Shown in pieces: positions 5,765-38,665 of a stretch of DNA of 64,000 bases. The stretch is from Dehalococcoidales bacterium (lineage in GTDB: Bacteria > Chloroflexota > Dehalococcoidia > Dehalococcoidales > G020351185): positions 558,887 through 622,886 of the forward strand of contig CAXXST010000002.1 in NCBI GenBank assembly GCA_963674855.2. The letters are read 5' to 3'. The position numbers and the translations under genes are program-made. Under the pieces are notes generated by a model that worked only from the letters and a program-made list of their open reading frames with translations, was not told where the DNA came from and ran no database searches. Every line of letters starts with the position of its first letter. Position 1 is the stretch's first letter.

Positions 5765-5865
5765 AATGTAAGATATTTCTCCTTTCGACCTTCACTAATA
5801 TATTCCTAATTTAGACTGATATTAATAAAAATAGGCATCACCTCATCTCTTTTAAGTTATGCTAA

Positions 5866-7063: not shown

Positions 7064-7080
7064 TTTATTATATTCACTGA

Positions 7081-10511: not shown

Positions 10512-11039
10512 TTATCTCCTCCCCACCACTCCTCTCATAACAGCTAGCCCCAGCCATATTCCACCGGCAATATATGCCATGGTATGGGCGGATTGTAATG
10601 CGGTGTATATGCTGATTCCTTCACCGACCGCAGAAAACCCTTCAATCGCAATGCCAAAGACCGCCAGACGGTTGGTTATGACCATATGAACAGCCACAAA
10701 GGCATAGACAATCAAACCAATTCCAACTATTCCCAGAAGCAATGAGCCTTTCCACCTGCCAAGCTTAGTACTAACGAGCGCCAGCACTACGCTTAGCCCC
10801 ACATATATCCAGGCGATTACCGTCTGCCATATAGGGGTTACGTCGTCTGCTACGTAATTAGCCAGCGTATTCAGGTTATGGCGTAATCCCCAGCCATAGA
10901 TGTTTATCGCCTGTCCGCCATCAAACCTGCCAATCCACCAGGGCATGATAAAGGAGGCTATCATAAGCCCTCCGGCAGCAGCTACCAGCAGGCGAAAGAG
11001 CCACATTTTCCAGTTATCAATTATGCTTATAAGATTCAT
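10512..11039 (-). CDS. Integral membrane protein, unknown function
   Basis: Four to five hydrophobic helices. GAGGTG lies 7 nt before the ATG at 11039, so this start is preferred over the track start at 11078. Follows the Mo-enzyme operon on the same strand. Confidence 0.5.
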   Translation of the reverse strand: MNLISIIDNWKMWLFRLLVAAAGGLMIASFIMPWWIGRFDGGQAINIYGWGLRHNLNTLANYVADDVTPIWQTVIAWIYVGLSVVLALVSTKLGRWKGSLLLGIVGIGLIVYAFVAVHMVITNRLAVFGIAIEGFSAVGEGISIYTALQSAHTMAYIAGGIWLGLAVMRGVVGRR

Positions 11040-11156
11040 ATCAACACCTCTGTATATCGGATTAGCCCCTTCAGGCAAAGAGGGCGGGGCATTATTATAA
11101 CACCCCGCCCTCTTTGTTTCTAGCTAATTCTTATAGCCCTTACAGCTATTAAGCTT

Positions 11157-12116: not shown

Positions 12117-12126
12117 CTTCTTCCTC

Positions 12127-14634: not shown

Positions 14635-15366
14635 TTAAGCACCTCCTAGTTTCTGAGCCGCTTCCAAAACTGCCGGTATATGCTGGGGATAAGTGCTGCA
14701 GCGGCACAGGTTGCCGGAAAGGGCATCCATTATTTCTTCCTTTGAAGGGTTGGGGTTCTTGTCCAGCAGCGCCTTGGCTGTTACTACGAAACCAGGTGTG
14801 CAGTAACCACACTGCATACAGTTGTTATTCTTGTAGGCTTCAATTAAAGGATGGTTTGCATGGGCTATACCTTCGATTGTTTCTATCTTCTTGCCGGTGC
14901 ATTCAATAGCCAGCATCATGCAGGATAGAACGGGTAGCCCGTCCATGATAACAGTGCAGGAGCCGCAGGCGCCGGCATCACACCATTCCTTGGCGCCAAT
15001 GAGGCCTAATTCGCTATTAAGTACCTGCTGCAAAGTCCAGTTGGGGCGTACCATAACGGTATAATCGTTGCCGTTAATATCCAGCTTTATGATAGCTTCG
15101 GCAACCTCACCGGCTTCTGTCTGGGAGGTAACTGTTATGGTGGGACCGGGTACGGTGGCTGTTACCGTTGATGCGCCTCCGCCTACCGTGGTAGTGACGT
15201 TGTTTGTAACCGTCTTGGTTACTGTATCAGTAACCGCTTCTCCATCACCACCGCAAGCAGCCAGAAGAACGGTTGAGCCTATGGCAGTGCCACCGATTAA
15301 AAGACCGGCGTCTTTAAGAAACTCTCTTCTGGAAACACCGCCGGATTTTTTCTTTTCTTCAGTCAT
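14635..15366 (-). CDS. Tat-signal, lipobox-containing 2x[2Fe-2S] small subunit (PaoA-like)
   Basis: SRREFLK followed by LLAAC. A Thr/Val-rich linker of about 55 aa comes next, then 2Fe-2S motifs CDAGACGSC, CMQCGYCTPG and CRCSTY. Confidence 0.85.
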   Translation of the reverse strand: MTEEKKKSGGVSRREFLKDAGLLIGGTAIGSTVLLAACGGDGEAVTDTVTKTVTNNVTTTVGGGASTVTATVPGPTITVTSQTEAGEVAEAIIKLDINGNDYTVMVRPNWTLQQVLNSELGLIGAKEWCDAGACGSCTVIMDGLPVLSCMMLAIECTGKKIETIEGIAHANHPLIEAYKNNNCMQCGYCTPGFVVTAKALLDKNPNPSKEEIMDALSGNLCRCSTYPQHIPAVLEAAQKLGGA

Positions 15367-15475
15367 ATTATTTATATGATCTCCTTTTCGACCTTTTTAT
15401 TATTCATTCATTAACCGGTTTGTTCTTTCAAACTCACCTATAGGCACCACCTCCTTTATTAAAGTGATTATCAGG

Positions 15476-15670
15476 TTATCCGTTACAGTTGGTCTTTTCC
15501 CAGAAGTCAACCAGCTGGCTGATAAAGCCGTCATAGCATTGACCGGGGGCTCTGTTCTTATCCAGCTTGTTTTTGGTTATTGCCTTCAATCCTATAGTTG
15601 TGCGCGGATTACACAGCCCGTTGCCGTTGCCATTCTCTTTAACTGATACTACTTCGCGGTTTCCATTCAT
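15476..15670 (-). CDS. Small conserved hypothetical protein (paralog of 5866..6078)
   Basis: AAGGAG lies 9 nt before the ATG at 15670 (MNGNREVVSVKEN..). The C-terminus ..TTIGLK..YDGFISQLVDFWEK.. is shared with the other small ORF. Confidence 0.45.
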   Translation of the reverse strand: MNGNREVVSVKENGNGNGLCNPRTTIGLKAITKNKLDKNRAPGQCYDGFISQLVDFWEKTNCNG

Positions 15671-15985
15671 TAAGTGTTTCTCCTTTAATATTTGTATTGG
15701 TTTATTCACTATTTATCAGTATTGCTTCTGTATAAGCTATAAATATGAACTAACAAGGGGTATGGTGATGCAAAGTTCAGATTAAAATAAAAGTATTTTG
15801 CTGTTTCTTGCCTACTCCTTATGTAAGAAACGAAATGACAAGCTCTCAAAAAACCTTGTTTACACGAGTGCATTAAAACTACCGTCAACACACCAGTCTT
15901 TGACAAGGGTAACCATATTCGGGCATTTACCCTTGTGATTTATAGACAATACATATAAACGTGAATACAATCTTAAATAAGTATA

Positions 15986-16052
15986 AGGTTCAGGGGTTAA
16001 AAAGAGGTTAAAAAATCAGAGTGTAAGGTTAAACAAAGTTAAATATAAGTTA
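15986..16052. promoter_or_regulatory. Helically phased (A/G)GTTAAA direct repeats
   Basis: GGTT(C/A) or AGTTA starts at about 15987, 15995, 16006, 16027, 16037 and 16048. Spacings are about 8-11 or 21 bp, and several copies are followed by A-tracts. Located just downstream of the regulator stop, upstream of the small ORF/Mo-enzyme operon. Confidence 0.3.
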
Positions 16053-16079
16053 TAAATAATTATAATTAGAAAGGGTGGG

Positions 16080-16760
16080 TTAAGGCTTGATAAGGGAGTA
16101 ACCAACCCCAATTTTGGTGAGAATAATCTTTGGGTTACCCGGGTCCTTTTCTAATTTTTCACGAAGGTGTCGTATATGCACTTTGAGGGAATTGGCTGCC
16201 CCTTCGAAATCATCCCCCCAGACAGATTTTGCCAACGATGAATAATTAACTACATAGGGAGATTCTTGCACGAGTTTATAGAGAATCTCGTTTTCAATAC
16301 AACGCAGATTTATAATTTTATCTTTGTAGTGCAGGCTGCGCCGGCCGTAATCAAGGGTGAATTCTCCGAATATAACCGGTGAACTAACATCGGTTTCCAG
16401 CCGCTCCAGGGCAAGCCTTTTAATCCGTGCCAGAAGTTCCATCTGTCTGAAAGGTTTAAACACATAGTCATTTGCCCCAAGCTCCAGAGCTTGAACTACA
16501 GTAGCTTCGTTTGTATCAACTGTAAGTATAAGAATGGGGATTTTAGAAAACATCCGTATACGCTTGATGACCTCTAGCCCGTCTATGTCAGGTAAGCCTA
16601 AATCCAGTATGACGACATCAGGATTTGCAGTTTCAACAAGTTCAATTCCTTCCTGCCCCCACTTTGCTGATATGATTTCAACATTAGGCCACCCAAGTTT
16701 GCACGAAAAACTGATGGCGGTAACAATTTTACTGTCGTCTTCTATAATTAGCAGTTTCAT
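16080..16760 (-). CDS. OmpR/PhoB-family response regulator
   Basis: 226 aa. Receiver (IIEDD, DVVILDLGLPD, KPF) plus winged-helix output ending GVGYSLIKP. Overlaps the kinase stop by 4 nt. Confidence 0.9.
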   Translation of the reverse strand: MKLLIIEDDSKIVTAISFSCKLGWPNVEIISAKWGQEGIELVETANPDVVILDLGLPDIDGLEVIKRIRMFSKIPILILTVDTNEATVVQALELGANDYVFKPFRQMELLARIKRLALERLETDVSSPVIFGEFTLDYGRRSLHYKDKIINLRCIENEILYKLVQESPYVVNYSSLAKSVWGDDFEGAANSLKVHIRHLREKLEKDPGNPKIILTKIGVGYSLIKP

Positions 16761-18871
16761 GCGTTTACCCGGCTCTTTAACGGTAACAGGAAATAGAAAA
16801 TACTTCCCTGATTTTCAGCATTTCTAATTCCTATCTCACCGCCATGAAGTCTTATTATCATTTTAGCAAGCGTTAGACCAACGCCAATTCCTGTATGGGA
16901 ATAGTCTGACTTTTTCCTTGAATAATAAGATTCGAAAATTTGCTCCTTTTCATTATCGGGTATTCCCAAACCGTTATCTTCAACTTCAAAAAGCAGGTTA
17001 TCTTTACAGCTCTTGATTCTTAAAATGATTCTACCGCCTATTGGTGTAAACTTGAACGCATTATCCAGAAAATTAACAAGGACCTGCCTTATGCGTTCAG
17101 GGTCAACTTCAATAATATTATCGGTTGTGTCAATTTTCAAAGCAAGGGTTTGATTTCTGCTCCTGAAAAGATATAGCATCTCGTCCGATATTTTTTTAAC
17201 CAGTTTAATGATATCGCAAGGCTCGGTCTTTATATCAAGCATTCCAATTTCTCCACGAGCTATATCCAGAAGTTCATCAACTCTTCTATTTAAGGCGCAT
17301 GCTCCTTCGTAAAGATTTTGGGAAATAATTTTAAACTCGCTGTTCTTCTGATGTGTAAGGACTTCACTTGCGGCAATCATGGGCGTAAGGGGGGTTTTAA
17401 GTTCATGCACCAGCAGTTTGGTGAATTCAATTCTTCTATCAATCTCTTCACTTAAGTTTGCTGTCCGTTCCTCAACCATTTTTTCAAGTTGCTCTTGATA
17501 CTCTCGTAATTCCTTTTCTTTATTCTTGAGATCCGTTATATCGAAGTAGTATATGAAAACTTTTGAAAGCGTATCCTCATAACCAGGCGCAACGATAATA
17601 TGTTCCTGGGTAGTCATCATATGACCTTTTATAGTGCTAACCCGTGTTTCTCTTGACAATTGAGTTCGCCCCTCGGCAAGGTCAACCATGGTCCTTTTAC
17701 AGCTTTGCCAGTATTCATTCTTGCTCTTGCATGCATGTTCCAGGCGGTCTCTCATTTCAGATACGTTCTGAGCTCCCTTTATCTCAAGAAGTTTTGGATT
17801 TATATATGAAGCCATTGGGATAGTGTAGCATGAGTATATTTTGTAAGGATTCTTTTCGAAATATGCTGAAAAGTCTTTAACGCCTTGTTTCTTTAAATCG
17901 TCAAATATCTTCTTGGCGCCTGAATAATCCGCTTCGCATATGGCAACCGGGGCATTTTCAAATAGAGTGTGATATCTTTGCCCGGATTCCTTCAGGGCTT
18001 TATCTGCCTGTTTTCTATCTGTAATATCCCTTATATATGCTACATTGGTCAGTTTGCCTCTATAGTTAGTTACTGCACTGGTCACTTCAATGGGTATTTC
18101 CTTGCCATCTTTATGAGTTATAGTTAACTCAAAGAGGTCCGGTATAGTCTCTCCGGACATCTTCTGGCGATGCCTTTTCACTGAAAGCCGCCTGTCTATA
18201 GTTCTGATGAGGTCAAAGAATGACATTCCCAAAAGTTCTTCCCTGGAGTAACCTGTAATCTCTAGCCACTGGTCACTGACATAGGTGTGAATACCTTCTT
18301 TGCCATTAAAATCCTGAAGCATAACCATGGCTTCACCAATCTTGGTGCCAAGGTCAACCAATGTACGATACCTGCCTTCAATCTCTTTAAGGGCTTTTTC
18401 CTTTTGCTTAAGGTTTGCCTGTTCCCTCTTCTGCTTATTCTTTTGCCTTGTAATATCTCTGTGAAAGCCGAAAGCAAGCCCTTCATCCAGATAGCTTAAG
18501 GTAACGGCAAAATCAATTACCTTGCCATTTTTGCGCCTGTGACGGGTTTCAAAGGAAACCCTTCCCGTTTTTTCAACTTCAGAGATTCTTCTCCTCATTG
18601 TATCTGGTGCTTCATCAAAGCCAACTTCAATATCATCTATTTTCATAGACAGCAGCTCATCAAGGTTATAACCAAGCATGTCGCAGAAAGTATCATCGGC
18701 ATCCAGGATATTGCCTTCGGGGTGTTTTATAAGCAGAAAGCCATCCGGGGAGCTTTGTATAATAGCCTTATACCAGTTGTCTCTTAAACAGGGGTGGCTC
18801 AAAGTATTTCTCTTGGGTGGACAGGCTTCATTCTTCGCATTATTCCCCTTGTATTCCTTAACTTTATCCAT
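16757..18871 (-). CDS. Soluble multi-PAS sensor histidine kinase
   Basis: 704 aa with three or more PAS-like regions. One closely matches HK 7081..8763 (GEAMVMLQDFNGKEGIHTYVSDQWLEITGYSREELL). H-box VHELKTPLTP, HATPase DNGLGIP..GIGVGL. No transmembrane segment. Confidence 0.85.
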   Translation of the reverse strand: MDKVKEYKGNNAKNEACPPKRNTLSHPCLRDNWYKAIIQSSPDGFLLIKHPEGNILDADDTFCDMLGYNLDELLSMKIDDIEVGFDEAPDTMRRRISEVEKTGRVSFETRHRRKNGKVIDFAVTLSYLDEGLAFGFHRDITRQKNKQKREQANLKQKEKALKEIEGRYRTLVDLGTKIGEAMVMLQDFNGKEGIHTYVSDQWLEITGYSREELLGMSFFDLIRTIDRRLSVKRHRQKMSGETIPDLFELTITHKDGKEIPIEVTSAVTNYRGKLTNVAYIRDITDRKQADKALKESGQRYHTLFENAPVAICEADYSGAKKIFDDLKKQGVKDFSAYFEKNPYKIYSCYTIPMASYINPKLLEIKGAQNVSEMRDRLEHACKSKNEYWQSCKRTMVDLAEGRTQLSRETRVSTIKGHMMTTQEHIIVAPGYEDTLSKVFIYYFDITDLKNKEKELREYQEQLEKMVEERTANLSEEIDRRIEFTKLLVHELKTPLTPMIAASEVLTHQKNSEFKIISQNLYEGACALNRRVDELLDIARGEIGMLDIKTEPCDIIKLVKKISDEMLYLFRSRNQTLALKIDTTDNIIEVDPERIRQVLVNFLDNAFKFTPIGGRIILRIKSCKDNLLFEVEDNGLGIPDNEKEQIFESYYSRKKSDYSHTGIGVGLTLAKMIIRLHGGEIGIRNAENQGSIFYFLLPLKSRVNA

Positions 18872-27776: not shown

Positions 27777-28924
27777 CAGCTTATGCCGATTTCTTCATCT
27801 GTGAGATAACAGGCAGGGTCTTCAGCCCAGACATCCCCGTATTTTGACTCTGCGCGAACCCGTAAGTTTCCATTACACATATCAAGGTGCTGGCATTCGG
27901 CGCAGCGTCCCTTAAGAAGCCCCTTGCGGTCTTTTAAGCCTTTAAGAAGCGTGTCTGAGGTATCTGTCCAGATATCGCCGAATTTTCTCTTTTTAACATT
28001 ACCCAGAGAATAGTGCCACCAGAACTGGTCCGGGTGGACATTGCCACGGTCATCAACACAGCTTATCCTGATGCCGGAGTTATTGCCGCCGTTAATCTGC
28101 ATCAGCTTCTTTACCTCTTCAGCGCGCTCGGGATTTTCTTTTTTAAGTTTCAGATATAGATAAACACCATCTGCGTGGTTGCCTACCGTCAGGATTTCTT
28201 TGTGTAAGCCGCGCTGGTAAAGGTCCAGTGTATGATGAATAATAGTATCCATAACTTCCCTTGCCTGGGAATGGTTTATGTCTTCATTTTGCAGGCTGCT
28301 GCCCCTTCCGGAATAAGCCAGGTGGTAAAGGCAGACACGCTTTATACCTTCTTTTTCCACAAGTTCAAAGATAGCCGGGATATCCATGTAATTGTGGCGG
28401 GTGATAGTCAGCCTTAAAGAAACCCTTATCCCCAGGGCGATACATCTGCGGATGCCTGTAAGAGCGTCTTTGAAAGCGCCTTGCTTGCCACGGAAGTGGT
28501 CATTATGCTCTCCGATGCCATCAAGGCTAATGCCTACCTCCCCGAAGCCAAGGTAGTTCAAATGACTGGCAACCCTGTCTGTAATAAGTGTGCCGTTGGT
28601 GGAAAGCCCTGTTTTTAAGCCGTATTCACGGGCAAGGCTTACCATTTGAAACAAATCCCCCCTCATCAGGGGCTCACCGCCGGAAAAAAGAATTACCGGG
28701 ACACCAAAATCCGCAAGGTCACGGATAAAAGTCTTTCCTTCACTGGTGTCCATTTCATTGGTTGATCCATTGTTGCCGGCAGAGGCATAACAATGGATGC
28801 AGTTAAGGTTGCACTGGCGGGTACAATTCCATACAACAATCGGTCTTGGCGCACCCTTTTTTTCATAGCGAAGGTGATCGCCGGGACCCGCTTCATCGCA
28901 TAGCAGGCGTGTTATAGATATCAT
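27776..28924 (-). CDS. Radical SAM enzyme of the Ahb pathway (AhbD or AhbC type)
   Basis: CNLNCIHC radical SAM motif and a C-terminal CAECQHLDMCNGNLR Cys cluster. 1-nt overlap with the next gene. Confidence 0.75.
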   Translation of the reverse strand: MISITRLLCDEAGPGDHLRYEKKGAPRPIVVWNCTRQCNLNCIHCYASAGNNGSTNEMDTSEGKTFIRDLADFGVPVILFSGGEPLMRGDLFQMVSLAREYGLKTGLSTNGTLITDRVASHLNYLGFGEVGISLDGIGEHNDHFRGKQGAFKDALTGIRRCIALGIRVSLRLTITRHNYMDIPAIFELVEKEGIKRVCLYHLAYSGRGSSLQNEDINHSQAREVMDTIIHHTLDLYQRGLHKEILTVGNHADGVYLYLKLKKENPERAEEVKKLMQINGGNNSGIRISCVDDRGNVHPDQFWWHYSLGNVKKRKFGDIWTDTSDTLLKGLKDRKGLLKGRCAECQHLDMCNGNLRVRAESKYGDVWAEDPACYLTDEEIGIS

Positions 28925-28948
28925 AATATTTTCGGTATTGTGAGGTAT

Positions 28949-29569
28949 TTAATTGCCATTACGGTACTTCTGATATGTAGCTACAAGGGCGACGAGAGCC
29001 TCATCCATGACGTATGTAACCATTGGTATTTTTTCAATGACATGCCCGGTGACGGACTCTCTTTTTTTAAGCAAATGGGTTACGGCGTTCATAATCGGCT
29101 CGCGGTGCAGGATAAAGGCTTCAACGGATTCATTAAGAGAAAGCCCCATTTTATAAAGGATTTCTGCGTGGTCCCTCCCGACGCCTCTCACCAATTCAAT
29201 CGTTTCTTTGCGGTTGCCGGGTTCGGTGATATACTTGATAATCAGGTTAAGCATTCGCCTGCCAAGGTTAGCAAAATGCCCTTGCGCTTCCTGCCCCAGT
29301 TTGCCACGCATACCCTTGAATGGAATATGACCAACCTCGCGGTGTTTGGGGGCGGTTTCTTTAAGCTCTGCAACCAGATCTTTCATGCCAAGCATTTTGG
29401 GATGTGTTCTTATGAACTTCTTTAAATCCGCTTCGTTATAGCGGCGATGTCCGCCCGGAGTTATGAAAGCCTCAAGCAGTCCTTCATCAGTCCACTGGCG
29501 GAGCGACCCCTCGCTGACACCCAGGATATGGCTTGCTTCACTGATATTAATTAATAACTTTTCAGGCAT
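28949..29569 (-). CDS. MerR/excisionase-type HTH regulator with uncharacterised C-terminal domain
   Basis: N-terminus INISEASHILGVSEGSLRQWTDEGLLEAFITPGGHRRY. Ends 24 nt before the first ahb gene on the same strand. Confidence 0.65.
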   Translation of the reverse strand: MPEKLLINISEASHILGVSEGSLRQWTDEGLLEAFITPGGHRRYNEADLKKFIRTHPKMLGMKDLVAELKETAPKHREVGHIPFKGMRGKLGQEAQGHFANLGRRMLNLIIKYITEPGNRKETIELVRGVGRDHAEILYKMGLSLNESVEAFILHREPIMNAVTHLLKKRESVTGHVIEKIPMVTYVMDEALVALVATYQKYRNGN

Positions 29570-29587
29570 AAGTGAAAAACTTCATAC

Positions 29588-29616
29588 TTGCTAATATCTA
29601 CAAAATCTAGTAAAAT
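29588..29616 (+). promoter_or_regulatory. Sigma70-like promoter candidate
   Basis: TTGCTA, 17 nt, TAAAAT, about 100 nt upstream of ORF 29720. The spacer contains a direct repeat AAAATCTA x2. Confidence 0.35.
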
Positions 29617-29719
29617 CTACAGTAGTTTATCTTAAAAAAGCAGCCTTGTCAATATATCTTATATCAGTAACAGCCATTGACGGTGTTTATATATACATCT
29701 GACAGACAGGAGACGCGTA

Positions 29720-30169
29720 ATGACATTCATCCCGAAGCAGGTTAAAGAAAAGCTGAAAAATGACGAGATTATAGAGAAAATATTCAAATTAAGAAAACGT
29801 TTTTCGCCATTGAGTTGCAGCGTATATGCATCAAACTCACGGCTTATTATACAGAAATACGGAAACGTTATCGGCATACCTTATGAATCTATTGAAAGCG
29901 CGGATATAAAACATAAAAGAAGAACACACCTTATAATACTGGGTATTATACATTCCATAGCCGGAGCGCTGATATACTGGACAAAGGGGGAGGGATATTC
30001 CATATTAATGATACCTGCCGGATTTCTTATCATATACTCAGGGTATTCCCAAAATAAGAGCATTGAATTGAATATATCAGGGAGATTAAAACCCATGGAA
30101 ATAAAAGGGCAGGCTCAAAACCTCAGTTCGTTAATGGATATAATCAGGGATAAAACAGATAGTGAATAA
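29720..30169 (+). CDS. Hypothetical protein with two central hydrophobic helices
   Basis: 149-aa ORF with GGAG 8 nt upstream of the ATG. No recognisable catalytic motif. Confidence 0.45.
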   Translation: MTFIPKQVKEKLKNDEIIEKIFKLRKRFSPLSCSVYASNSRLIIQKYGNVIGIPYESIESADIKHKRRTHLIILGIIHSIAGALIYWTKGEGYSILMIPAGFLIIYSGYSQNKSIELNISGRLKPMEIKGQAQNLSSLMDIIRDKTDSE

Positions 30170-30349
30170 ATTGGATTACATATATAGCTGTTAAACATAC
30201 CATTGCAGTAATACGGCTGTTATTTAACCGCTGCCTTCTGACACGGTTTTCTTAAAAGATGACCACGCTTTTTTCAGGGATAATCCTAATATACAGGTAT
30301 TATACTAATATGATAATGAAATATTAGTATATGCAGCATAAGAAACAGA

Positions 30350-30997
30350 TTAATACATAAACAAACCAATTGATTGAGCCGTAAAAACCAGCCCTATTGT
30401 TACCATGGTTACACCGGCAATCCTGCGTATTCTGTCAATTCCCAACCGGCGTCCCAGAAGGAATGATAGCCCCCCGCCGGCAGCTCCGATTACCAGCAGA
30501 AAAAAGGAAGACACCAGCCAGAAGAGCAGGATAAAGATGCTCATTTCAGCAAAGCCAGGCAGGGTAAGCATAAAGGCGATGGCGGCAATTAGCGGCCCGC
30601 AAGGTTTGATGCCGGCTAAAATGCCGAGATACAAAGGGGACCTGACGCCGGACATATGACGGCAGAGAAACCTGCCGGGAAATGATGGTTGATTAAAAAC
30701 GCCGAAAGCCGCCAGTCCGCTGAGTAAAAGAATAATACCGCTGATAAGGGTGGCTGTGGCTACTACAGTTGAACTGACGTTTATTATTTCCTTTACTGCA
30801 AGGAAAACCAGAAGCAAGGCGGCATAGGAAATTAACCTGCCTATGGAGAAGGTGAATGCCGAAACAAAACCGTTGCGGATAGAAGGATTTGCTGCCGTAG
30901 CCGTATAAGGGATAAGCATTGGCATGCAGGTTGCCATACAGCCGAGGCTGGCGCCAAAACCCATAACTAAACCGGCTGAGATAGCAACAGACATCAT
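30350..30997 (-). CDS. Polytopic membrane protein, DsbD_2/CcdA/UreH-like (putative thiol or metal transport)
   Basis: About 6 transmembrane helices. An N-terminal helix carries GCMATCMP, a Cys-x3-Cys inside the membrane. Lies 5 nt downstream of the polyferredoxin gene. Confidence 0.45.
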   Translation of the reverse strand: MMSVAISAGLVMGFGASLGCMATCMPMLIPYTATAANPSIRNGFVSAFTFSIGRLISYAALLLVFLAVKEIINVSSTVVATATLISGIILLLSGLAAFGVFNQPSFPGRFLCRHMSGVRSPLYLGILAGIKPCGPLIAAIAFMLTLPGFAEMSIFILLFWLVSSFFLLVIGAAGGGLSFLLGRRLGIDRIRRIAGVTMVTIGLVFTAQSIGLFMY

Positions 30998-31002
30998 CCC
31001 AC

Positions 31003-32160
31003 CTAAAACAAACCGAAAAATTTATCGCATACAGTAACTATAAACCACATATACCAGCCTAAAACAGCGATAATAGCAAGTGATATGAAAAGCCCCCTGG
31101 CTTTCTTGAAAGTTCCGAACCAGTACATATCTATAGCTTCTTCCGGGCAAGCCTCAATACAGCGTCCGCAACGGATGCAATTGGCATTGGGTTTTCCATC
31201 TCCTTCAACATCATCTGGGGTTATGGCAAACATGCGGCACTCTTGAACACAGTCAAGGCATTTTATACACTTGTCCTTGTTTATCCTGACGCGGAAGAAG
31301 CTGATTTTATTAAAAATGGAAAGGACAGCTCCCATGGGGCAGATATGGCACCACCACCTATGCTTAGTCATAAACGGCAGTATTATGGCAAAAACTACAA
31401 GAATACCGATGACTAACCAGAATACGGGAATAACTGCCAACCACAGCGCCGGGCAGAATATGCACAGGACTGGAAACGACAGGAAAACAGAAAGCAAAAC
31501 CAGAGCCAGCAGAATGCCATACTTGGTGTCTTTGACCCATTCCTTAAGTCCGGCGTAGCGAAGCCCACTGCTTGCAACCCTTGATTTCTTGAGAAAGTTA
31601 AGCCGCCACCTTTCCTTTTTACCGGTAACCATGGCTTCATTAAGTCCACCAAATGGGCATATCCAGCCGCAGAAGCCGCGGCCAAAGACCAGCCCGGTTA
31701 CAATGAAAGGTACTGTTAAAAGCATCATTTCGTTGAAAGTGGTGGGGAAGGATGCTTCCCAGACTCCTGCATCGGGTATATATGACGCCCGCCCAAAAAA
31801 CGCCTCTGGGATAATACGGGCGCAGGGAAAGGAAAGCGTGCCTAAAGATTCGCTTGGTTTGTAGTATTCAATCCATTCATAATGTTCGGGAGCCCAGTCC
31901 AAAAGACCCTTTACTCCCCAGTCGCTTAAAATAACAACCAAGGTAGAGCCAAGAACAACCACAAATATACCTATGTAAAATACACGGCGGAGGCGTTCCA
32001 TACGCTTGGTGGTGAGAATAAAATAAGTGAATACGCCACTGATAAGAGCCATAACGACCCCCAGCCAGGGGAATGGCTTGATATACCACCACAGGGCAAA
32101 TCCTCCCACCAGAAATGCCATCAATATAGCTTGTTTATTAGATCTCACCGCCGGTTTCAT
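31003..32160 (-). CDS. NapH/MauN/NosR-like membrane-bound 4Fe-4S polyferredoxin
   Basis: Multiple transmembrane helices, the CGWICPFGGLNE motif, and C-terminal ferredoxin motifs CIKCLDCVQEC and CIRCGRCIEACP. Confidence 0.7.
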   Translation of the reverse strand: MKPAVRSNKQAILMAFLVGGFALWWYIKPFPWLGVVMALISGVFTYFILTTKRMERLRRVFYIGIFVVVLGSTLVVILSDWGVKGLLDWAPEHYEWIEYYKPSESLGTLSFPCARIIPEAFFGRASYIPDAGVWEASFPTTFNEMMLLTVPFIVTGLVFGRGFCGWICPFGGLNEAMVTGKKERWRLNFLKKSRVASSGLRYAGLKEWVKDTKYGILLALVLLSVFLSFPVLCIFCPALWLAVIPVFWLVIGILVVFAIILPFMTKHRWWCHICPMGAVLSIFNKISFFRVRINKDKCIKCLDCVQECRMFAITPDDVEGDGKPNANCIRCGRCIEACPEEAIDMYWFGTFKKARGLFISLAIIAVLGWYMWFIVTVCDKFFGLF

Positions 32161-32193
32161 GCCGTATTCCTCCAGTCAATCATACTCTTCTAC

Positions 32194-33411
32194 CTAGCCG
32201 ATGGTTTCAAGGAAAGCCTGTATCTGGTAATCCACCTTTTCTGCGTTTTCATTTGGGAAGGTTGTCTCTATAGAAAGCACGGGAACACCAAGTTCCTCTT
32301 TTATGACATCTCTGAACATCCTTTCAGCCCCGGATATATACCGCGAACCGACGACACTGCTTATCATAACGGCGTCGGGACGCTGTTTACTGATTAAATC
32401 CAGTTCACTCCTGACGCGTTTAGCCGAAGGCATATTACATGGCATGCGCCAGATCCATTGCGCCAGGCTGTCAAGGGGTGATTTGGCTTCATCAATAACA
32501 TCATAATAAAGCGGCAGCCTGAAATCACAGCCCACCATGACACCGCCATAGTTTTCAATGGAGTTGAATATGCACAGTTCCTGAGATTCATCCCCCATTA
32601 AATAGACCCGCACCGGGGAAGATGATATTCCGGGGGCGGTTTCTTCTTTGCCAGCCCTGATTCTTAGTTCGTCTATGAGGTTGCGGTAGTGAGTATGCAA
32701 ACCTTCCGGGTCCTGGGCATAGTCTCCCATCATCATCTGGACCAGATAATACTCCAGGGCGGCTATTGGGACTTTGGGCATAGCAAGATATGTATTTATC
32801 TCTGCCATATCCTGCCGCAGCAGGTTGCCAAGATGGATGGAACGGCGTAAATCCCCTTCTGTTACTTTATTTCCAGTATATAATGCCAGCCAATCAAAAA
32901 GCTGTTGCAGTTCCTTTTTAAGGTAGGTCAAAGCAAAAGTTTCCGCTTCCGGATTATAAAATGGTATTTCCCAGAAGTGCAGCGGGGAGGAGCCAGCCTG
33001 CGCCATAACCTGAAAGCTTTTAGTTATCTGGTCGTCCAGGTTGCTGCTGGCGGTGGAGTAGGCGTCAACAGGTAAAAGCGCCTTACCGGTAAGTGTAGCT
33101 CCGAGCATGGCAAGGCTCCAGGGGCTGAAGTCCGGGCTCATACCGGCAGCAGCCGCTTCCGGTCTTAAATCAGTGCGTCCGTTAAAAACAGATTGCACCA
33201 TGCTTTCATTTGTAGCTATATCATAGGCAACAGCATTAGCGGCGTATATAAAATCCACCGGAGACAGCGGACCCTTGGCGATAACCTTTTTGCCTGTAGC
33301 GGCGACCCTCTGCGGGGCGTTAAGGTAAAAGGAAATAAGTTTATCAAAAGACTTAAGGTCAGAATCAAAGCGCAACCCGGCTGTACCGCTGAAACTCTCC
33401 AGTTTCATCAA
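32194..33411 (-). CDS. 2-hydroxyacyl-CoA dehydratase / benzoyl-CoA reductase family subunit (HgdB/BcrB-like)
   Basis: 405 aa. 4-nt overlap with the preceding paralogous subunit. Operon partner of an HgdC-type activase. Confidence 0.65.
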   Translation of the reverse strand: MMKLESFSGTAGLRFDSDLKSFDKLISFYLNAPQRVAATGKKVIAKGPLSPVDFIYAANAVAYDIATNESMVQSVFNGRTDLRPEAAAAGMSPDFSPWSLAMLGATLTGKALLPVDAYSTASSNLDDQITKSFQVMAQAGSSPLHFWEIPFYNPEAETFALTYLKKELQQLFDWLALYTGNKVTEGDLRRSIHLGNLLRQDMAEINTYLAMPKVPIAALEYYLVQMMMGDYAQDPEGLHTHYRNLIDELRIRAGKEETAPGISSSPVRVYLMGDESQELCIFNSIENYGGVMVGCDFRLPLYYDVIDEAKSPLDSLAQWIWRMPCNMPSAKRVRSELDLISKQRPDAVMISSVVGSRYISGAERMFRDVIKEELGVPVLSIETTFPNENAEKVDYQIQAFLETIG

Positions 33412-34592
33412 ACTCCTCTCAACATCTCTATAAAAGCCTCGGCTTTGGTTTTTATAACGCCAACATCCGAAGATGAATATTCAGATTCCAGCAGAAGGGA
33501 CGGGACTTTCAGTTTGTCATTGAGATAGTTTTTTATAATAGGAAACTCTGCCCGCCAGCTATCGCAGTATTTAAGGTTGTAATAGATAATGCCGCTGACA
33601 TTGTAATCGCGGGCAATCTTGGCAATCCGGCTGAGCCTTTTATCCAGGTCTGTCATACAGGGGCAGGGGATATTATAAAGATAGCGTTCTGCCAATGCGT
33701 CAATGGGATTGCCCATAATGCCGAAAATGGTGACGTTCTTACGGGCGAACATAGAGCCGGTGCAGACGGCATCCGCCACGATATTGCCGCCGGACTCATT
33801 TACTATATCCAGAATCTTGTGGTCACCTACGGCAAGAACACTGCCGGTAATCATCAGGCGAACACGATTATCTTTGACGCCTGAAGGCGGCTTCTTTTCC
33901 AGCTCCTGCGTTAAATTATCAAGTTCGGAGAGATAATCATTATGCTCAAGGACGAAACCAGCCTGCGTAATGCGGATGGCGTCACGCCATTCAATTGGAG
34001 AGGAAGGTTCGCGCGGATATTCAAATAGAAGCCGCAGCTTTTCCCTGATGGAATTGCTCAGTTTTATTGAATTACGGATTGCGCTGCCTTTTATCGGTTT
34101 GCCGGCAAAATCGCCCAACCTCTGCCTGAACAACTCAAGCTCCTTCTTAAAATATTCCAGCGCCTGGGGGCGGGAGCGGGAGGCTTCGTGGGTGTGGGGC
34201 ATTCCTATAGAAAACACCGGAATACCCAGATACTTTTCGTAATACTCTGATACCCGTTTCATATTCTCGCAGGTCTGGGCAACGCAGATGGCGTCAAGCA
34301 TGTTAAAATATTCGTTCTTGCCCTCCAGTTTATAGCCCAGGCAGCAGCGGGCGTAAGGGCAACTGTATGACTTAAGAAACTCCTCACCGGCGGTTGCCGG
34401 TTCCAGCTCCCCGCCGAATGCCAGGCGTATGGGAATCATGCCGGCAGCCAGGATGATTTCTTCGGGAACATAGGGGCAGAAATAACCGATAACCTTAGCG
34501 CCGTTTTTCTTTGCTTCGGCTATGCGTTGCGGCTCTTCGGAAAGCCTGTTTTCAAGCCGCCTGATTACTGAATCCTGTGGTTCCGGCACCAT
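33408..34592 (-). CDS. 2-hydroxyacyl-CoA dehydratase / benzoyl-CoA reductase family subunit (HgdA/BcrC-like)
   Basis: KVIGYFCPYVPEEIILAAGMIPIRL, SYSCPYARCCLG and ICVAQTCENM are typical of the HGD-D family. Confidence 0.75.
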   Translation of the reverse strand: MVPEPQDSVIRRLENRLSEEPQRIAEAKKNGAKVIGYFCPYVPEEIILAAGMIPIRLAFGGELEPATAGEEFLKSYSCPYARCCLGYKLEGKNEYFNMLDAICVAQTCENMKRVSEYYEKYLGIPVFSIGMPHTHEASRSRPQALEYFKKELELFRQRLGDFAGKPIKGSAIRNSIKLSNSIREKLRLLFEYPREPSSPIEWRDAIRITQAGFVLEHNDYLSELDNLTQELEKKPPSGVKDNRVRLMITGSVLAVGDHKILDIVNESGGNIVADAVCTGSMFARKNVTIFGIMGNPIDALAERYLYNIPCPCMTDLDKRLSRIAKIARDYNVSGIIYYNLKYCDSWRAEFPIIKNYLNDKLKVPSLLLESEYSSSDVGVIKTKAEAFIEMLRGV

Positions 34593-34615
34593 TCCAGAAA
34601 TAGCCGCCTCCTTTA

Positions 34616-35401
34616 CTATCCGGCGTCACGGGCGATAAGAGCTGCCCCAAGCGCGCCGACAAGCTGGGAATCAATATCCGGGGGAAGCACGATGTCAACC
34701 CCCAGTTCTTGCTGTAAAGCTGTAACAACTCCTGAATTTTTGGCTACACCACCTGTCATCATAATTGTCGGCTTAACGCCGATTCTTTTAACCATATTGC
34801 CCACCTTGCTGGCAATAGCGGTATGCAAACCGGCAACGATACTCTCAACGCTGTCACCCGCCGCCAGAAGAGAGATTATTTCCGTCTGGGCGAAAACAGT
34901 GCAGGCGCTTGAAATATTAGACTTGCTTGTGGCTTGAGCGGATAGACTGCCGAGGTCTTCCAGTGGAACGTGCAGTACCAGTTGCGCCGCCGAATCAAGG
35001 AATCTCCCCGTGCCGGAAGCGCATTTGTCATTCATTAGAAAATCTATGATATTCCCCTGATCACCAAGACTGATTGCTTTGGCGTCCTGTCCTCCTATAT
35101 CAATAATGGTTCTGACAGAAGGCTCCAGGAAGTGAGCGCCGCGGCCATGGCAGGTAATCTCTGTTATCGTCTTGTTGGCAAAATCTGCGGAAACACGGCC
35201 GTAGCCGGTTGCGATTACATACTCTACATCATCTATAGAGTGCTGGCTCTGCTGTAGCGCTGCCTGAAAAACTTCCTTGCCGGCTTGAGGGGGGCTGGTA
35301 CCAGAGGGCTTGATGGCTGTCCACATTTGCCCGCTTTGATTAAGCACTACGGCTTTAACCGTGGTGCTGCCAATATCAATACCGGCTGTAAGTGAAAGCA
35401 T
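34616..35401 (-). CDS. BcrAD/BadFG/HgdC-type ATPase (CoA-substrate-specific enzyme activase)
   Basis: GIDIGSTTVKAVV, DIGGQDAK, NDKCASGTGRF, ACTVFA and TGGVAKN: an ASKHA fold with the bridging-cluster cysteines. Confidence 0.85.
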   Translation of the reverse strand: MLSLTAGIDIGSTTVKAVVLNQSGQMWTAIKPSGTSPPQAGKEVFQAALQQSQHSIDDVEYVIATGYGRVSADFANKTITEITCHGRGAHFLEPSVRTIIDIGGQDAKAISLGDQGNIIDFLMNDKCASGTGRFLDSAAQLVLHVPLEDLGSLSAQATSKSNISSACTVFAQTEIISLLAAGDSVESIVAGLHTAIASKVGNMVKRIGVKPTIMMTGGVAKNSGVVTALQQELGVDIVLPPDIDSQLVGALGAALIARDAG

Positions 35402-35658
35402 GCCCGCTAAAAATACTTCCCTTCTTTAGCTTATGCCCCGTGATTAAGGTAGTATTCTATACCAATTATAAAAATCTGTCCAATCATAATATTGCAAGGT
35501 ATTTACCGTGAGTATTTGCTGCATATTACTATCAGGCTATTTACATATATATTACGGATACTGAATAATAAAGCGTCTTTAACCATTAATGTAATGCATG
35601 CTGGCATTACAGGGGCTGGAAGAAGTTTAAATAAAGCAAAAGAAGGCAGGATATAAAA

Positions 35659-35820
35659 ATGGCAAGTAAATTGAAACGCAGCAGTGAGCAGGTTGCCTGG
35701 GATATACATATAACCAGAGCCAAAATGGCCGAACGCCGCAAGGTTGTGGAAACACTTAACAGGTATCTGGAACAGGATGAGCAGAAACTGGAAGAACTGC
35801 TGAGCAGCATTGACGCCTAA
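35659..35820 (+). CDS. Small charged helical protein (53 aa), hypothetical
   Basis: ATG..TAA frame checked by hand (MASKLKRSSEQVAWDIHITRAKMAERRKVVETLNRYLEQDEQKLEELLSSIDA). The RBS is weak. Preferred over the hydrophobic minus-strand ORFs that overlap it. Confidence 0.3.
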   Translation: MASKLKRSSEQVAWDIHITRAKMAERRKVVETLNRYLEQDEQKLEELLSSIDA

Positions 35821-35874
35821 AGCCAAACACGCCAAACAAAAGGGTAACAACACCCCCCCCGTTGTAAAAACATA

Positions 35875-35903
35875 TTGACAGCCTTATGACTTCAGAGTAA
35901 GCT
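35875..35903 (+). promoter_or_regulatory. Sigma70-like promoter candidate
   Basis: TTGACA, exactly 17 nt, TAAGCT, about 60 nt upstream of ORF 35963. A C8 run lies 15 nt upstream. Confidence 0.4.
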
Positions 35904-35962
35904 GGACATAGGATTAAAAAGCCGCAATCCGGTTCGTTACAGGTTGTATGGAGGTGGTCATT

Positions 35963-36223
35963 ATGGAGAAAAACATAGACAATGCGACCAAGCTGAAACC
36001 AATAGTAGAGAAAGCTGTCAAAGCTCTTTATGGTGGGGCGGTCAAGAACATCAGGATAATGAAAGCAGAGCAGTTTCCTTTGTTCAAAGAGCCTAAAGAA
36101 GGCTGGCTGGTGCATACAGAATTTGACGATGAACGATACGAATATAATGTTCAGATAGATATCCAGATGGCAGACGGGCGCATAACCCGTTCTGTTGAGT
36201 TGCACCGTTTGCCTATATGCTGA
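35963..36223 (+). CDS. Small hypothetical protein (86 aa)
   Basis: GGAGGTGG lies 5 nt before the ATG at 35963; the track start 35948 sits inside that RBS. No recognisable motif. Confidence 0.5.
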   Translation: MEKNIDNATKLKPIVEKAVKALYGGAVKNIRIMKAEQFPLFKEPKEGWLVHTEFDDERYEYNVQIDIQMADGRITRSVELHRLPIC

Positions 36224-36354
36224 TAAATCAACAGAAAACCCGCCTTGATACACAAACCGGCAACTTATTGAAACAGTAAGACGCAAGGCGGATTCCACAG
36301 CGCAAAGAAGCGGATATGGGGGTAAAATAATCCCCGAACTTCAAAAAAAACCTC

Positions 36355-36383
36355 TTGACACAATATGCCTGTGAAACTACACT
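36355..36383 (+). promoter_or_regulatory. Sigma70-like promoter candidate
   Basis: TTGACA, 17 nt, TACACT. The track start codon at 36365 lies inside the spacer, which argues for the downstream start at 36413. Confidence 0.5.
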
Positions 36384-36412
36384 ATGGAAAGCCTTATACG
36401 AGGTATAAAGTT

Positions 36413-36829
36413 ATGATATGTCCTGCCTGTAACAGCGATATGATAGATATAGAATACGAGCGCATTGAACTTGATTATTGCCTGAAGTGCCACGGCGTCT
36501 GGTTTGATGCTAATGAACTGGAATTGCTGTTTGAAAAGATGGGCGCAGGGGAAAACGGGCTGACGCTGGATGATGTGCTGTGTCTGAATGAAACAGGAAC
36601 AAAGGAAAAGGGGAGAAAATGCCCCATTTGCGGCAGGAAAATGAAAAAGACTGCCACCGGAAAAGGGAATGGGGTAATGATTGATGAATGCACACAGGGA
36701 GATGGGTTGTGGTTTGACGGCGGCGAAGTGGGGCAGCTTTTAAAACATGTAAAGAGACCTTCGGTGGAAACAGAATCCCAGAAAAAGGTGTTAGAGTTTT
36801 TGGGGGAAGTATTTAAAGCCGAAGAATAA
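36413..36829 (+). CDS. Double zinc-ribbon protein (TFIIB-type zinc-finger domains)
   Basis: Two copies of CPxC..(15-20 aa)..CxxCxGxWFD (CPACNSD..CLKCHGVWFDANELE and CPICGRK..CTQGDGLWFDGGEV). GAGGT lies 8 nt before the ATG at 36413. Confidence 0.65.
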   Translation: MICPACNSDMIDIEYERIELDYCLKCHGVWFDANELELLFEKMGAGENGLTLDDVLCLNETGTKEKGRKCPICGRKMKKTATGKGNGVMIDECTQGDGLWFDGGEVGQLLKHVKRPSVETESQKKVLEFLGEVFKAEE

Positions 36830-36864
36830 TATAGAAAGAGAATTAACAAAAACGGAGGTAAACT

Positions 36865-37440
36865 ATGTCAGGAGCGATGATAGCACTGTGGGTAATTCTG
36901 GGAATAATCGGTGTTTTTCTGGTGGCGTTTATAGTCATATATAATGGGCTGGTCAGGCTGCGTAATCAGGTTAAAAACGCTTGGTCGCAGATAGACGTTC
37001 AGCTTAAAAGGCGCTATGACCTTATCCCTAACCTGATGGAAACCGTCAAGGGGTATATGAAGCATGAGCGCGAGACACTGGAATCTGTAACCAATGCCCG
37101 CAATATGGCGCAGCAGCTTTCGGGCGGCAGCGTTGGCGCCCGTTCCAAGGCGGAAGGGGAATTGGGTTCCGCGCTGGGCAGGTTGCTGGCGGTGGTGGAA
37201 AACTATCCGGACCTTAAGGCCAACCAGAACTTTCTGGCGTTACAGGAAGAGCTTACATCCACTGAAAACAAGATAAGTTTTTCGCGCCAGTTCTATAACG
37301 ACTCGGTGCTGCGGCTTAACAACCAGACACAGATATTCCCATCAAATATAGTAGCCGGTATGACGGGTTTCAAGGCAGAGGAGTTCTTTGAGGTCAGCGC
37401 CGCCGAAGAGAGAAAAGCGCCCAAGGTGAATTTCTCTTAA
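36865..37440 (+). CDS. lemA: LemA family protein
   Basis: N-terminal transmembrane helix followed by NGLVRLRNQVKNAWSQIDVQLKRRYDLIPNLMETVKGY..ENYPDLKAN. Confidence 0.85.
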   Translation: MSGAMIALWVILGIIGVFLVAFIVIYNGLVRLRNQVKNAWSQIDVQLKRRYDLIPNLMETVKGYMKHERETLESVTNARNMAQQLSGGSVGARSKAEGELGSALGRLLAVVENYPDLKANQNFLALQEELTSTENKISFSRQFYNDSVLRLNNQTQIFPSNIVAGMTGFKAEEFFEVSAAEERKAPKVNFS

Positions 37441-37459
37441 CCGGGGGAAATAAGAGTTT

Positions 37460-38665
37460 ATGTGGGAACAGATAAGATCCAACCGCATAAGGACGGTGGG
37501 GTTGGTGGTTGGGATGGGTTTGCTGCTGCTGATCCTGGGGTATTTTCTGGGGCTGGCTTTTACGGAAAGCGGCATCGCCGGGCTGGTAATCGCATTGGTG
37601 ATATGGGTAGTGATGAGCCTGGTGGGGTATTTCCAGGGAGACAGTATCCTGCTGGCGACGGCGGGGGCAAAGAAGATAAAACGGTCAGACCACCAGCGCC
37701 TCTACAATATAGTAGAGGAAATGACAATCGCCTCCGGGTTGCCGAAAATGCCGGATGTTTACATAATAGATGACCCGGCGTTGAACGCTTTTGCCACCGG
37801 CAGAAATCCGGAAAAGGCGGCGGTGATTATAACCTCCGGGCTGCTGCAAAAACTCAACAGGGATGAGCTTCAGGGAGTAATTGCCCACGAGATGGCGCAT
37901 ATAAAGAACAAGGATGTGCTGTTGATGGCGATGACCAGTGTATTGCTGGGAACAATTGTTATACTGGCGTGGTATGGCTCACGGATGATGATTTTCGGTG
38001 GTGGTGGCAGGTCCCGCCGCGATTCTTCGGGCGGCGGCGGAGGACAGGCTATAATAATGGTGATTGCTCTTGTATTGGCAATACTGGCGCCACTGCTTGC
38101 CAATATGATTTATTTCGCCATATCAAGAAAACGTGAATACCTGGCAGACGCCTGCGGCGCTTCATATACCCGTTACCCGGAGGGCTTGGCTTCGGCGCTG
38201 GAAAAACTGGGAGCTTCCACCGGGCAGCTTAAATCTGCCAACCAGGCGACGGCGCCGATGTATATAACCAATCCCTTTCGCAAAAAGGGAAGGGCGGCAT
38301 CTGACCTTTCCAGCACCCACCCACCCATTTCAGAAAGAATACGTATTCTGCGTTCTATGGGTGGAGGCACGTCATTTGCTGATTACGATACAGCATATAA
38401 GCAGGTTCATGGCGGCAAGGGCGGCGTTATACCGGCTTCGGCAATGGGGCTGGCTGGGGCGACATCACAGGCGGTAACTCCGCCGAAAAGAACGCCAGAG
38501 CCGGATAAGATAACCCGCACCCGCGAAACGTCTGACTTAATGTGGAAGATGGGCAACTATAAAGAAATAGACTGCGATTGCGGCGCCAAGCTGCGCGTGC
38601 CGCCAGGCTTTAAAGAGACAAGCATAAAATGCCCCCACTGCGGCAGAGTTCACAAGGTTAAATAG
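37460..38665 (+). CDS. M48-family (HtpX-like) zinc metalloprotease with C-terminal zinc ribbon
   Basis: HEMAHIKNKD (HExxH), transmembrane helices, a Gly-rich insert GGGGRSRRDSSGGGGGQ, and a C-terminal CDCGAKLRVP..CPHCGRVH. Confidence 0.8.
   Translation: MWEQIRSNRIRTVGLVVGMGLLLLILGYFLGLAFTESGIAGLVIALVIWVVMSLVGYFQGDSILLATAGAKKIKRSDHQRLYNIVEEMTIASGLPKMPDVYIIDDPALNAFATGRNPEKAAVIITSGLLQKLNRDELQGVIAHEMAHIKNKDVLLMAMTSVLLGTIVILAWYGSRMMIFGGGGRSRRDSSGGGGGQAIIMVIALVLAILAPLLANMIYFAISRKREYLADACGASYTRYPEGLASALEKLGASTGQLKSANQATAPMYITNPFRKKGRAASDLSSTHPPISERIRILRSMGGGTSFADYDTAYKQVHGGKGGVIPASAMGLAGATSQAVTPPKRTPEPDKITRTRETSDLMWKMGNYKEIDCDCGAKLRVPPGFKETSIKCPHCGRVHKVK

Follow-up and report, generated by a model that had tools for sequence, protein, structure and literature searches.

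Positions 30350-35401 of a 64,000-nucleotide stretch of contig CAXXST010000002.1 (hereafter the window), taken from an uncultured Dehalococcoidales bacterium with a genome of 1.53 Mb in two contigs (G000), carry five minus-strand open reading frames (ORFs), here termed A to E. Sequence comparison leads us to propose, at a probability of roughly 0.6, that A-E encode a membrane-associated, ATP-driven reductase working at very low potential and belonging to the double-cubane superfamily, which takes in the double-cubane protein DCCP, class I benzoyl-CoA reductase (BCR) and 2-hydroxyacyl-CoA dehydratase (HAD). This proposal leaves the substrate aside. Within the superfamily, the locus is best read as a presumably heterodimeric, membrane-wired variant of the DCCP system and not as a CoA-ester dehydratase or a benzoyl-CoA reductase. 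The features of the locus are as follows.

34616-35401, minus strand: A, HgdC/BcrAD-type ATP-dependent electron-activating ATPase ('archerase', DCCP-R-like), 261 amino acids; PF01869, TIGR00241
33408-34592, minus strand: B, double-cubane-type HGD-D subunit, predicted [8Fe-9S] carrier, 394 amino acids; PF06050, six-cysteine spacing
32194-33411, minus strand: C, cluster-less HGD-D paralogue, presumed partner of B, 405 amino acids; PF06050
31003-32160, minus strand: D, NapH/NosR/CcoG-type integral membrane polyferredoxin, 385 amino acids, about seven transmembrane helices; PF12801
30350-30997, minus strand: E, DsbD_2 (CcdA/DsbD-superfamily) protein with six transmembrane helices, 215 amino acids; PF13386
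35454-35482, minus strand: promoter-like site TGGACA-17-TAGAAT, a consensus match only, about 53 nt upstream of the A start codon

The five ORFs agree exactly with an earlier first-pass annotation of the window, which had described tightly packed minus-strand genes with gaps of 23, -4, 33 and 5 nt, and the two motifs that it quoted are found at residues 164-172 of D (CGWICPFGG) and 19-26 of E (GCMATCMP). The start codon of C is TTG and lies within a TTGA start/stop overlap with B. A consensus scan of positions 29500-36400, which provides weak evidence, returned three promoter-like matches on the minus strand, namely the site before A and two sites downstream of E (30316-30288 and 29652-29624), and none between the five genes; this pattern fits a single transcription unit. 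Upstream of A, at 35503-36298, two further minus-strand ORFs of 116 and 180 amino acids have no family matches and an odd composition, and one of them is overlapped by a plus-strand ORF of 91 amino acids (35948-36223). The two minus-strand ORFs are probably not genes.

A-E probably form one operon, and their arrangement is far beyond chance: the order recurs in six further genomes and on 14 contigs from metagenomes, where the proteins are 40-60% identical. The comparison set comprised five species-level genomes, all from Dehalococcoidia (L001-L005), a sixth genome (G133) and 16 metagenome contigs that carry C. The five species-level genomes contain close homologues of D or C in the same gene order throughout, and the sixth harbors a complete A-E set. 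D follows C in 21 of the 21 loci that read past C (the window, the six genomes and 14/14 metagenome contigs), E follows D in seven metagenome contigs, and the full A-B-C-D-E order is present in 12 loci (L001-L004, G133 and the seven contigs). Neither D nor E was found within about 8 kb of 12 other Chloroflexota HGD-D loci. The first-pass annotation had tied the membrane genes to the ATPase and HGD-D genes, with the proviso that the tie should recur in at least one other genome; the membrane genes do belong with the others, and their linkage extends well past that minimum. The operon is rare, with true C orthologues in two of the 401 sampled Chloroflexota genomes and none found in the family tentatively taken as Dehalococcoides/Dehalogenimonas. 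Among more distant NapH-like loci only 2/80 contain HGD-D genes, in a generic NapH pattern scan that saturated on the CGWICPF motif. A variant clade of five loci (L127, L129, L135, L137 and L138) encodes a C that is about 47-51% identical and lacks E. In a Limnocylindrales metagenome-assembled genome (L028:1803-7819), one of the two distant NapH-like loci with HGD-D genes, DsbD_2, an HGD-D protein of 443 amino acids and two different BcrAD ATPases lie on one strand, with an unidentified 249-amino-acid ORF and a NapH-like gene divergent on the opposite strand, such that the same four families occur together in a different arrangement. A third, solitary HGD-D ORF (an open frame of 341 amino acids, 111 bits) is located outside the window at G000:C2:815846-816799.

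The assignment of B rests on its cysteines. B matches PF06050 (2e-93) and contains eight invariant cysteines, six of which (C39, C78, C108, C277, C310 and C343) are spaced as C39-X38-C78-X29-C108-X168-C277-X32-C310-X32-C343, an exact fit to the six published double-cubane ligands within the [8Fe-9S] motif CX19CX18-19CX29CX166-170CX32-34CX32C (PMC7317905). All six ligands are kept in 17/17 main-clade orthologues. Ranked among solved structures, the best relatives of B are DCCP (6ENO/7YYL, 177 bits), BzdN (138 bits) and HadC (116 bits). The first-pass suggestion of a double-cubane relative that would act on a non-CoA substrate fits B, given its six cysteines and its closest solved relative. In one locus of the variant clade (L129:5702-6907), two of the six ligand positions of B, 78 and 108, are occupied by Tyr and His, a sign that this subunit too may be losing or remodelling its cluster.

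In contrast to the six ligands of B, none is retained in C. C matches PF06050 (3e-43) and has no invariant cysteine, and no cysteine occupies any cluster-ligand position in 23/23 orthologues. The residues corresponding to B ligands 1 and 2 are Pro48 and Ser/Asn96 (from a visual comparison of the two family alignments), and those corresponding to ligands 3 to 6 are Asp126, Arg298, Met323 and Gly355 (from the DCCP alignment), with one exception each for Arg298 and Met323. BzdO holds its catalytic [4Fe-4S] cluster through Cys95, Cys128 and Cys380 (PMC11971306), and the residues of C at these three-cysteine sites are, across 23/23 sequences, Ser/Asn96, Asp126 (replaced by Asn in a single sequence) and Ser356, position 356 being taken from family alignment A5, which sets the last ligand one residue after Gly355. 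The first-pass annotation had called for a count of cluster-binding cysteines and had placed B and C as an HgdAB-type pair; the count gives six double-cubane ligands in B and none in C, and a pair of two cluster-bearing subunits is accordingly ruled against by the absence of every cluster-ligand cysteine from C.

Close relatives of C are few (21 at E<1e-30 in a search of 1.84 billion representatives). More distant relatives (P0123-P0125, P0132 and others) carry cysteine at exactly these three positions and display a faint affinity to HadB/BzdO, which suggests that the C lineage probably began as a three-cysteine alpha-type subunit whose cluster was lost in this clade. C is nevertheless not a decaying gene, as indicated by its conserved sequence (mean column identity of 75% among six orthologues that are 44-54% identical to the window C) and by a confident AlphaFold model (pLDDT 92.7) of the full two-domain HGD-D fold. 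The best fold matches of the model are DCCP, BzdN and HadB at a TM-score of about 0.8, and DCCP is the best solved relative of C as it is of B. Since the paralogue is both conserved and translationally coupled to B, we infer a B-C heterodimer instead of a B homodimer.

A matches PF01869 (4e-65) and scores 263.7 bits against TIGR00241, above the cut-off of 125.4, which places it among the ASKHA-fold HgdC/BcrAD archerases. Its Cys84, Cys127 and Cys167 are invariant in 13/13 orthologues; the latter two are probably the counterparts of HgdC Cys127 and Cys166, the pair that bridges a [4Fe-4S] cluster in the dimer. The A gene ends 23 nt ahead of the start of B, and the adjoining HgdC-type ATPase gene that characterizes DCCP (DCCP-R) is thus present.

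D matches PF12801 (1.6e-10) together with two 4Fe-4S ferredoxin motifs and is the only Fer4_5 protein in the genome. The motifs of NapH/MauN are intact, with CGWICP (164-169), C-x(2-3)-CP (271-275) and two CxxCxxCxxxC motifs invariant in 16/16 sequences, although the score against TIGR02163 is only 85.2 bits (cut-off 213). D has about seven transmembrane helices, and the positive-inside rule puts CGWICP, C-x(2-3)-CP and the 2x[4Fe-4S] domain (298-338) on the cytoplasmic side and C113 and C233/C236 at the outer face. Homologues of D form at least 120 full-length clusters from metagenomes at 42-68% identity, mostly unnamed or labelled 'polyferredoxin' or 'NapH'. The outer-face cysteines C113, C233 and C236 are present in 13/13 D sequences accompanied by E and replaced in the 3/3 that are not (L127, L137 and L138). 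A tie between these cysteines and E was considered and dropped, as the pattern reflects a single evolutionary event and no such rule holds among distant NapH-like proteins, where outer-loop cysteines occur whether or not DsbD_2 is encoded next door.

E exceeds the cut-off for PF13386 DsbD_2 (9e-15; 55.6 bits, cut-off 24.9) and has six transmembrane helices with four cysteines (C20, C24, C112 and C133) invariant in 13/13 sequences. C20 and C24 form a CxxxCxP motif in the first helix and C133 belongs to a PCxP motif (P132-C133-x-P135) in the fourth, as expected of a DsbD_2 protein. C20, C24, P26, C133 and P135 are likewise kept in distant DsbD_2 proteins beside NapH-like genes from the Limnocylindrales metagenome-assembled genome and from Bathyarchaeia. 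The structural model of E is of moderate quality (pLDDT 71.5), and a fold search with it gave no significant match, the hit to CcdA (5VKV) having an E-value of 0.11 and a TM-score of 0.38; ESM Atlas matches were DsbD_2 clusters only. The transporter-like character assigned to E by the first-pass annotation is one of two readings, the other being a CcdA-type thiol relay.

Placed beside characterized systems, the locus is closest to DCCP/DCCP-R of Carboxydothermus hydrogenoformans (CHY_0487/0488; 6ENO, 7YYL), which shares with B the six cluster cysteines at the same spacing and has an adjacent archerase gene. DCCP is a soluble homodimer with two clusters, whereas the genes described here predict a cluster-bearing B paired with a cluster-less C and add two membrane proteins as fixed partners, and unlike DCCP, B lacks Cys94 and stays below the NF040772 cut-off. 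BzdNOPQ and MbdONPQ (8S02, 9G87) also consist of two HGD-D paralogues in a heterodimer, in which the [8Fe-9S] cluster of BzdN serves to store electrons that an ATP-driven module supplies (PMC11971306). However, BzdO has a catalytic [4Fe-4S]-OH2 on three cysteines where C has Ser/Asn, Asp and Ser, and BCR differs further in having two different ATPase subunits against the one ATPase gene here, a CoA-ester substrate, and a soluble, ferredoxin-dependent enzyme. HadBC with HadI (3O3M) shares the large-subunit fold (C at a TM-score of about 0.8), the heterodimer and a separate ATP-dependent activator, but places a three-cysteine cluster in both subunits and has no membrane partners, in contrast to the six-cysteine site in B and none in C.

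The membrane proteins show a similar mixture of likeness and difference. NapH of NapGH, with its relatives NosR, RdhC/PceC and CcoG, resembles D in its membrane core, where two CX3CP-type motifs face the cytoplasm, and in the 2x[4Fe-4S] ferredoxin domain at the C-terminus. D is longer, with about 130 additional residues at its N-terminus that hold three transmembrane helices, and with one more such helix at its C-terminus. The operon contains no NapG, nitrate reductase or nap genes, the presumed partner of D is a cytoplasmic ATP-driven reductase, and a Tat Fe-S protein adjoins the operon only in some relatives. E shares with CcdA/DsbD (5VKV) six transmembrane helices, Cys-Pro motifs in the first and fourth helices, and DsbD_2 membership, but unlike CcdA it has four invariant cysteines, two of which make up a CxxxC pair within the first helix, and no cytochrome c maturation genes lie adjacent.

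From these likenesses a route for electrons can be sketched, with the part played by D resting on its topology and context. D would tether the system to the membrane and, through the 2x[4Fe-4S] domain on its cytoplasmic side, join the soluble module to redox partners in or beyond the membrane, and it would most likely serve as the electron entry point for A, the removal of electrons by D being less likely. A would take single electrons and drive each to a much lower potential through ATP hydrolysis, and B would receive the electron on its [8Fe-9S]-type double-cubane cluster. C would pair with B as in BzdNO or HadBC, its cluster-free pocket (with conserved DDQ, R298 and GSR) presenting a substrate or adaptor site, so that reduction would take place at B or at the B-C interface. 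E may act in transport across the membrane, either of a thiophilic compound that is substrate or product or of reducing equivalents carried by thiols. The gene set, its motifs, the missing ligands of C and the constant linkage are observed, while the direction of electron flow and this role of E are what we infer.

The first-pass annotation had stated that the substrate is not given by the window alone, and we agree; the related loci supply a lead to selenium or sulfur. The longest variant locus (L138) encodes, in order, an XDH-family enzyme with its FAD subunit, two YedE-like permease halves, B, C, a cupredoxin, a multihaem cytochrome c, D and DUF3343, a 'Se/S carrier' protein, and parts of this order recur on the shorter contigs L127, L129, L135 and L137. 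In the main clade, a true YedE selenium-transporter gene (TIGR04112, 485 bits, cut-off 200) follows E in L123. An unclassified and unrelated metagenome-assembled genome (L073:90-9571) strings together selB, tRNA-Sec, an rRNA-IVP-like gene, selA, a DCCP that passes NF040772 with 427.6 bits (cut-off 350), an activase, a ResA-like redoxin, a NapH-like gene, selD and a selD-like gene; no relatives of its NapH-like gene or of the arrangement were found. Across genomes, double-cubane proteins are reported to occur almost only where SelD is present, with a strong DCCP-SelD co-occurrence (preprint 10.1101/2022.07.06.499078).

The source genome itself encodes a Sec-containing SelD, SelA, YqeB, YqeC, a YedE-DUF3343 pair and about 20 XDH-type paralogues. 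The relevant sites are G000:C1:59124-61228, C2:104750-107100 and C2:997178-998718; YqeC and YqeB score over their cut-offs, SelD has an in-frame TGA and lies beside SelA, and YedE is paired with DUF3343. YqeB and YqeC are markers of the maturation of selenium-dependent molybdenum hydroxylases, and selenium probably serves the organism in two forms, as Sec and as a labile cofactor of molybdenum enzymes. Selenium (or sulfur) trafficking is the best lead to the substrate. The more specific idea, that a selenium species (or, less likely, a sulfur species) would be reduced to selenide for SelD and the selenium-dependent molybdenum hydroxylases, is our best guess at the substrate, though a tentative and in our estimate rather improbable one.

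Several observations weigh against the assignment to the double-cubane branch and against the selenium lead. B does not have the seventh motif cysteine of the double-cubane family, a non-ligand residue (DCCP Cys94 in classes I and II) replaced here by Ala58/Phe59; class III double-cubane proteins also do without it, but these are fused to their own reductase (PMC7317905). Against NF040772, the model for double-cubane cluster proteins ('cluster IV' of IPR010327), B scores 270.3 bits and C 79.5 bits, both under the cut-off of 350, one variant B (L129) has lost two of the six ligands, and no activase was found within 7 kb in the variant clade. With respect to selenium, SelD is present in 231/301 Dehalococcoidia (77%, in a tally that takes in the unpublished genome G244), making its co-occurrence with the operon uninformative, and the enrichment of YqeB (5/7 operon genomes vs 24/301 genomes) is confounded by lineage. 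YedE, DUF3343 and SelD of the source genome lie far from the operon, and other neighbours recur beside it, including Tat-FeS with AOR-type enzymes, XDH-type enzymes, and LipA with a GcvH-like protein. Cells normally make selenide by thiol chemistry and have no need of a super-reductant. The Se(0)/HSe- potential may be put at about -0.7 V. Because SelD is so widespread, YqeB is bound to lineage, the operon is distant from the selenium genes and other neighbours recur, selenium stays only a lead.

Three other explanations of the locus bear on these data. In one, the system would export ATP-boosted electrons, with B storing electrons of very low potential that leave via D to Tat-exported Fe-S proteins and W/Mo-pterin (AOR-type) enzymes, for example for extracytoplasmic reduction of carboxylic acids; a mirror image, in which extracytoplasmic oxidation by AOR feeds electrons through D to A, is possible. 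The established NapH system includes the Tat-exported NapG as a working partner, and four loci (L003, L130, L133 and L136) have a Tat-signal (SRREF) Fe-S subunit and a 650-amino-acid AOR-family gene directly upstream of A on the same strand, at a distance of 17 nt from A in the case of L130. In L002 and L125 this pair is found downstream of E in convergent orientation. Genes for a cupredoxin and a multihaem cytochrome c separate C from D in the variant clade, and the window has two AOR-type modules at 2940-18871. However, those four upstream cases come from closely related contigs, the source genome has no orthologue of this AOR (its best match there shares 32% identity and is encoded at a distance of about 54 kb), and with about 10 AOR and 20 XDH paralogues per genome some adjacency is to be expected. 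A catalytic-type double-cubane subunit with a dedicated C would moreover be an odd choice for a mere relay, and we regard electron export as unlikely.

A second idea is that the locus is a module for the acquisition of trace metal or corrinoid, or else that its selenium neighbours reflect selenium within the double-cubane cofactor (a bridging selenide) and not a substrate; taken together these are decidedly unlikely. The superfamily of E includes metal transporters, L138 encodes a tetrapyrrole methylase close to D, and an Ahb haem operon follows E in the window. Nevertheless, no Rfam riboswitch, cobalamin or other, was detected in window positions 28000-38000 or in 10 related loci, and no TonB receptor, ABC importer or chelatase is present in any locus examined. 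Selenium in the cofactor has been named as a formal possibility (preprint 10.1101/2022.07.06.499078), but in the structures solved for DCCP and BzdN the bridging atom of the cluster was modelled as sulfide (PMC7317905, PMC11971306). The remaining explanation, an ordinary CoA-ester radical enzyme (a 2-hydroxyacyl-CoA dehydratase or class I benzoyl-CoA reductase) with incidental membrane genes, would account for the Pfam names HGD-D and BcrAD_BadFG, for the weak NCBIfam matches of B to HadC, BzdN and BcrC, and for the HgdABC-like layout of two large subunits plus an ATPase. It is disfavoured and very improbable, as C has lost the three cysteines that hold the catalytic [4Fe-4S] cluster of HadB and BzdO and all equivalog scores fall far below their cut-offs. 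Among the class I BCR equivalogs tested (TIGR03190/03191/02260/02263), B reaches 114.7 bits against BzdN (cut-off 453.8) and C gives no match to BzdO or BcrB, while the 2-hydroxyacyl-CoA dehydratase equivalogs yield 139 bits for HadC (cut-off 700) and 25 bits for HadB (cut-off 750). The locus also has a single ATPase gene, with no CoA ligase/transferase or beta-oxidation genes nearby, and the placement of D after C in every locus reading past C speaks against incidental membrane genes.

Further genes recur around the operon in L130:1205-14225 and in the matching parts of L002, L004, L109, L125, L126, L133 and L136. These encode a membrane protein of 200 amino acids with one transmembrane helix and a CPVCxGTG (CxxCxGxG) motif (10 loci), a secreted Ig-like protein of 167 amino acids (seven loci), the lipoyl synthase LipA (six loci), a GcvH-like protein with an N-terminal extension (four loci) and an uncharacterized protein of 420 amino acids (four loci). 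LipA was not detected in the source genome by tblastn. The same tblastn survey counted about 20 molybdopterin enzymes of the XDH family, all of them accompanied by a CoxM-like FAD subunit, and about 10 pairs of Tat Fe-S and AOR-family proteins, examples of which are at window positions 11166-14589, C2:155714-182080 and C1:102626-131935. For a Dehalococcoidales genome of 1.53 Mb, this load of XDH and AOR enzymes is an unusual specialisation.

To our knowledge, double-cubane [8Fe-9S] enzymes were discovered in 2018, and benzoyl-CoA reductase is the only one with a known job. In the searchable literature we found no papers linking double-cubane proteins to NapH, NosR, polyferredoxins or Dehalococcoidia, and none linking 2-hydroxyglutaryl-CoA dehydratase to Dehalococcoidia. 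Novel features of the locus are the presumed heterodimer in which one subunit has no cluster, the constant DsbD_2 partner and the selenium/sulfur neighbourhood. In the series known so far, DCCP has two double-cubanes, BzdNO a double-cubane and a [4Fe-4S] cluster, and HAD two small clusters (PMC11971306). The locus described here adds a further state, of which we found no description: a predicted double-cubane subunit with a partner devoid of any cluster. Its fixed membrane partners, together with its selenium/sulfur neighbours, provide a short list of testable substrates. It is a speculative and rather unlikely extension of the selenium lead that the physiological role of double-cubane reductases, long looked for, would be, at least in this membrane-wired branch, the ATP-driven reduction of otherwise inaccessible selenium, whether elemental, protein-bound or thiol-bound, to selenide at the membrane. 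If so, the chalcogen would arrive by way of E or YedE and the electrons by way of D, C would form a chalcogen pocket facing the double-cubane of B, and the selenide would feed SelD and the maturation of selenium-dependent molybdenum hydroxylases. For the organism, the findings point to a different way of life within Dehalococcoidales, one in which a 1.5-Mb genome combines pterin enzymes of the XDH type (about 20) and of the AOR type (about 10) with genes for the maturation of a selenium cofactor.

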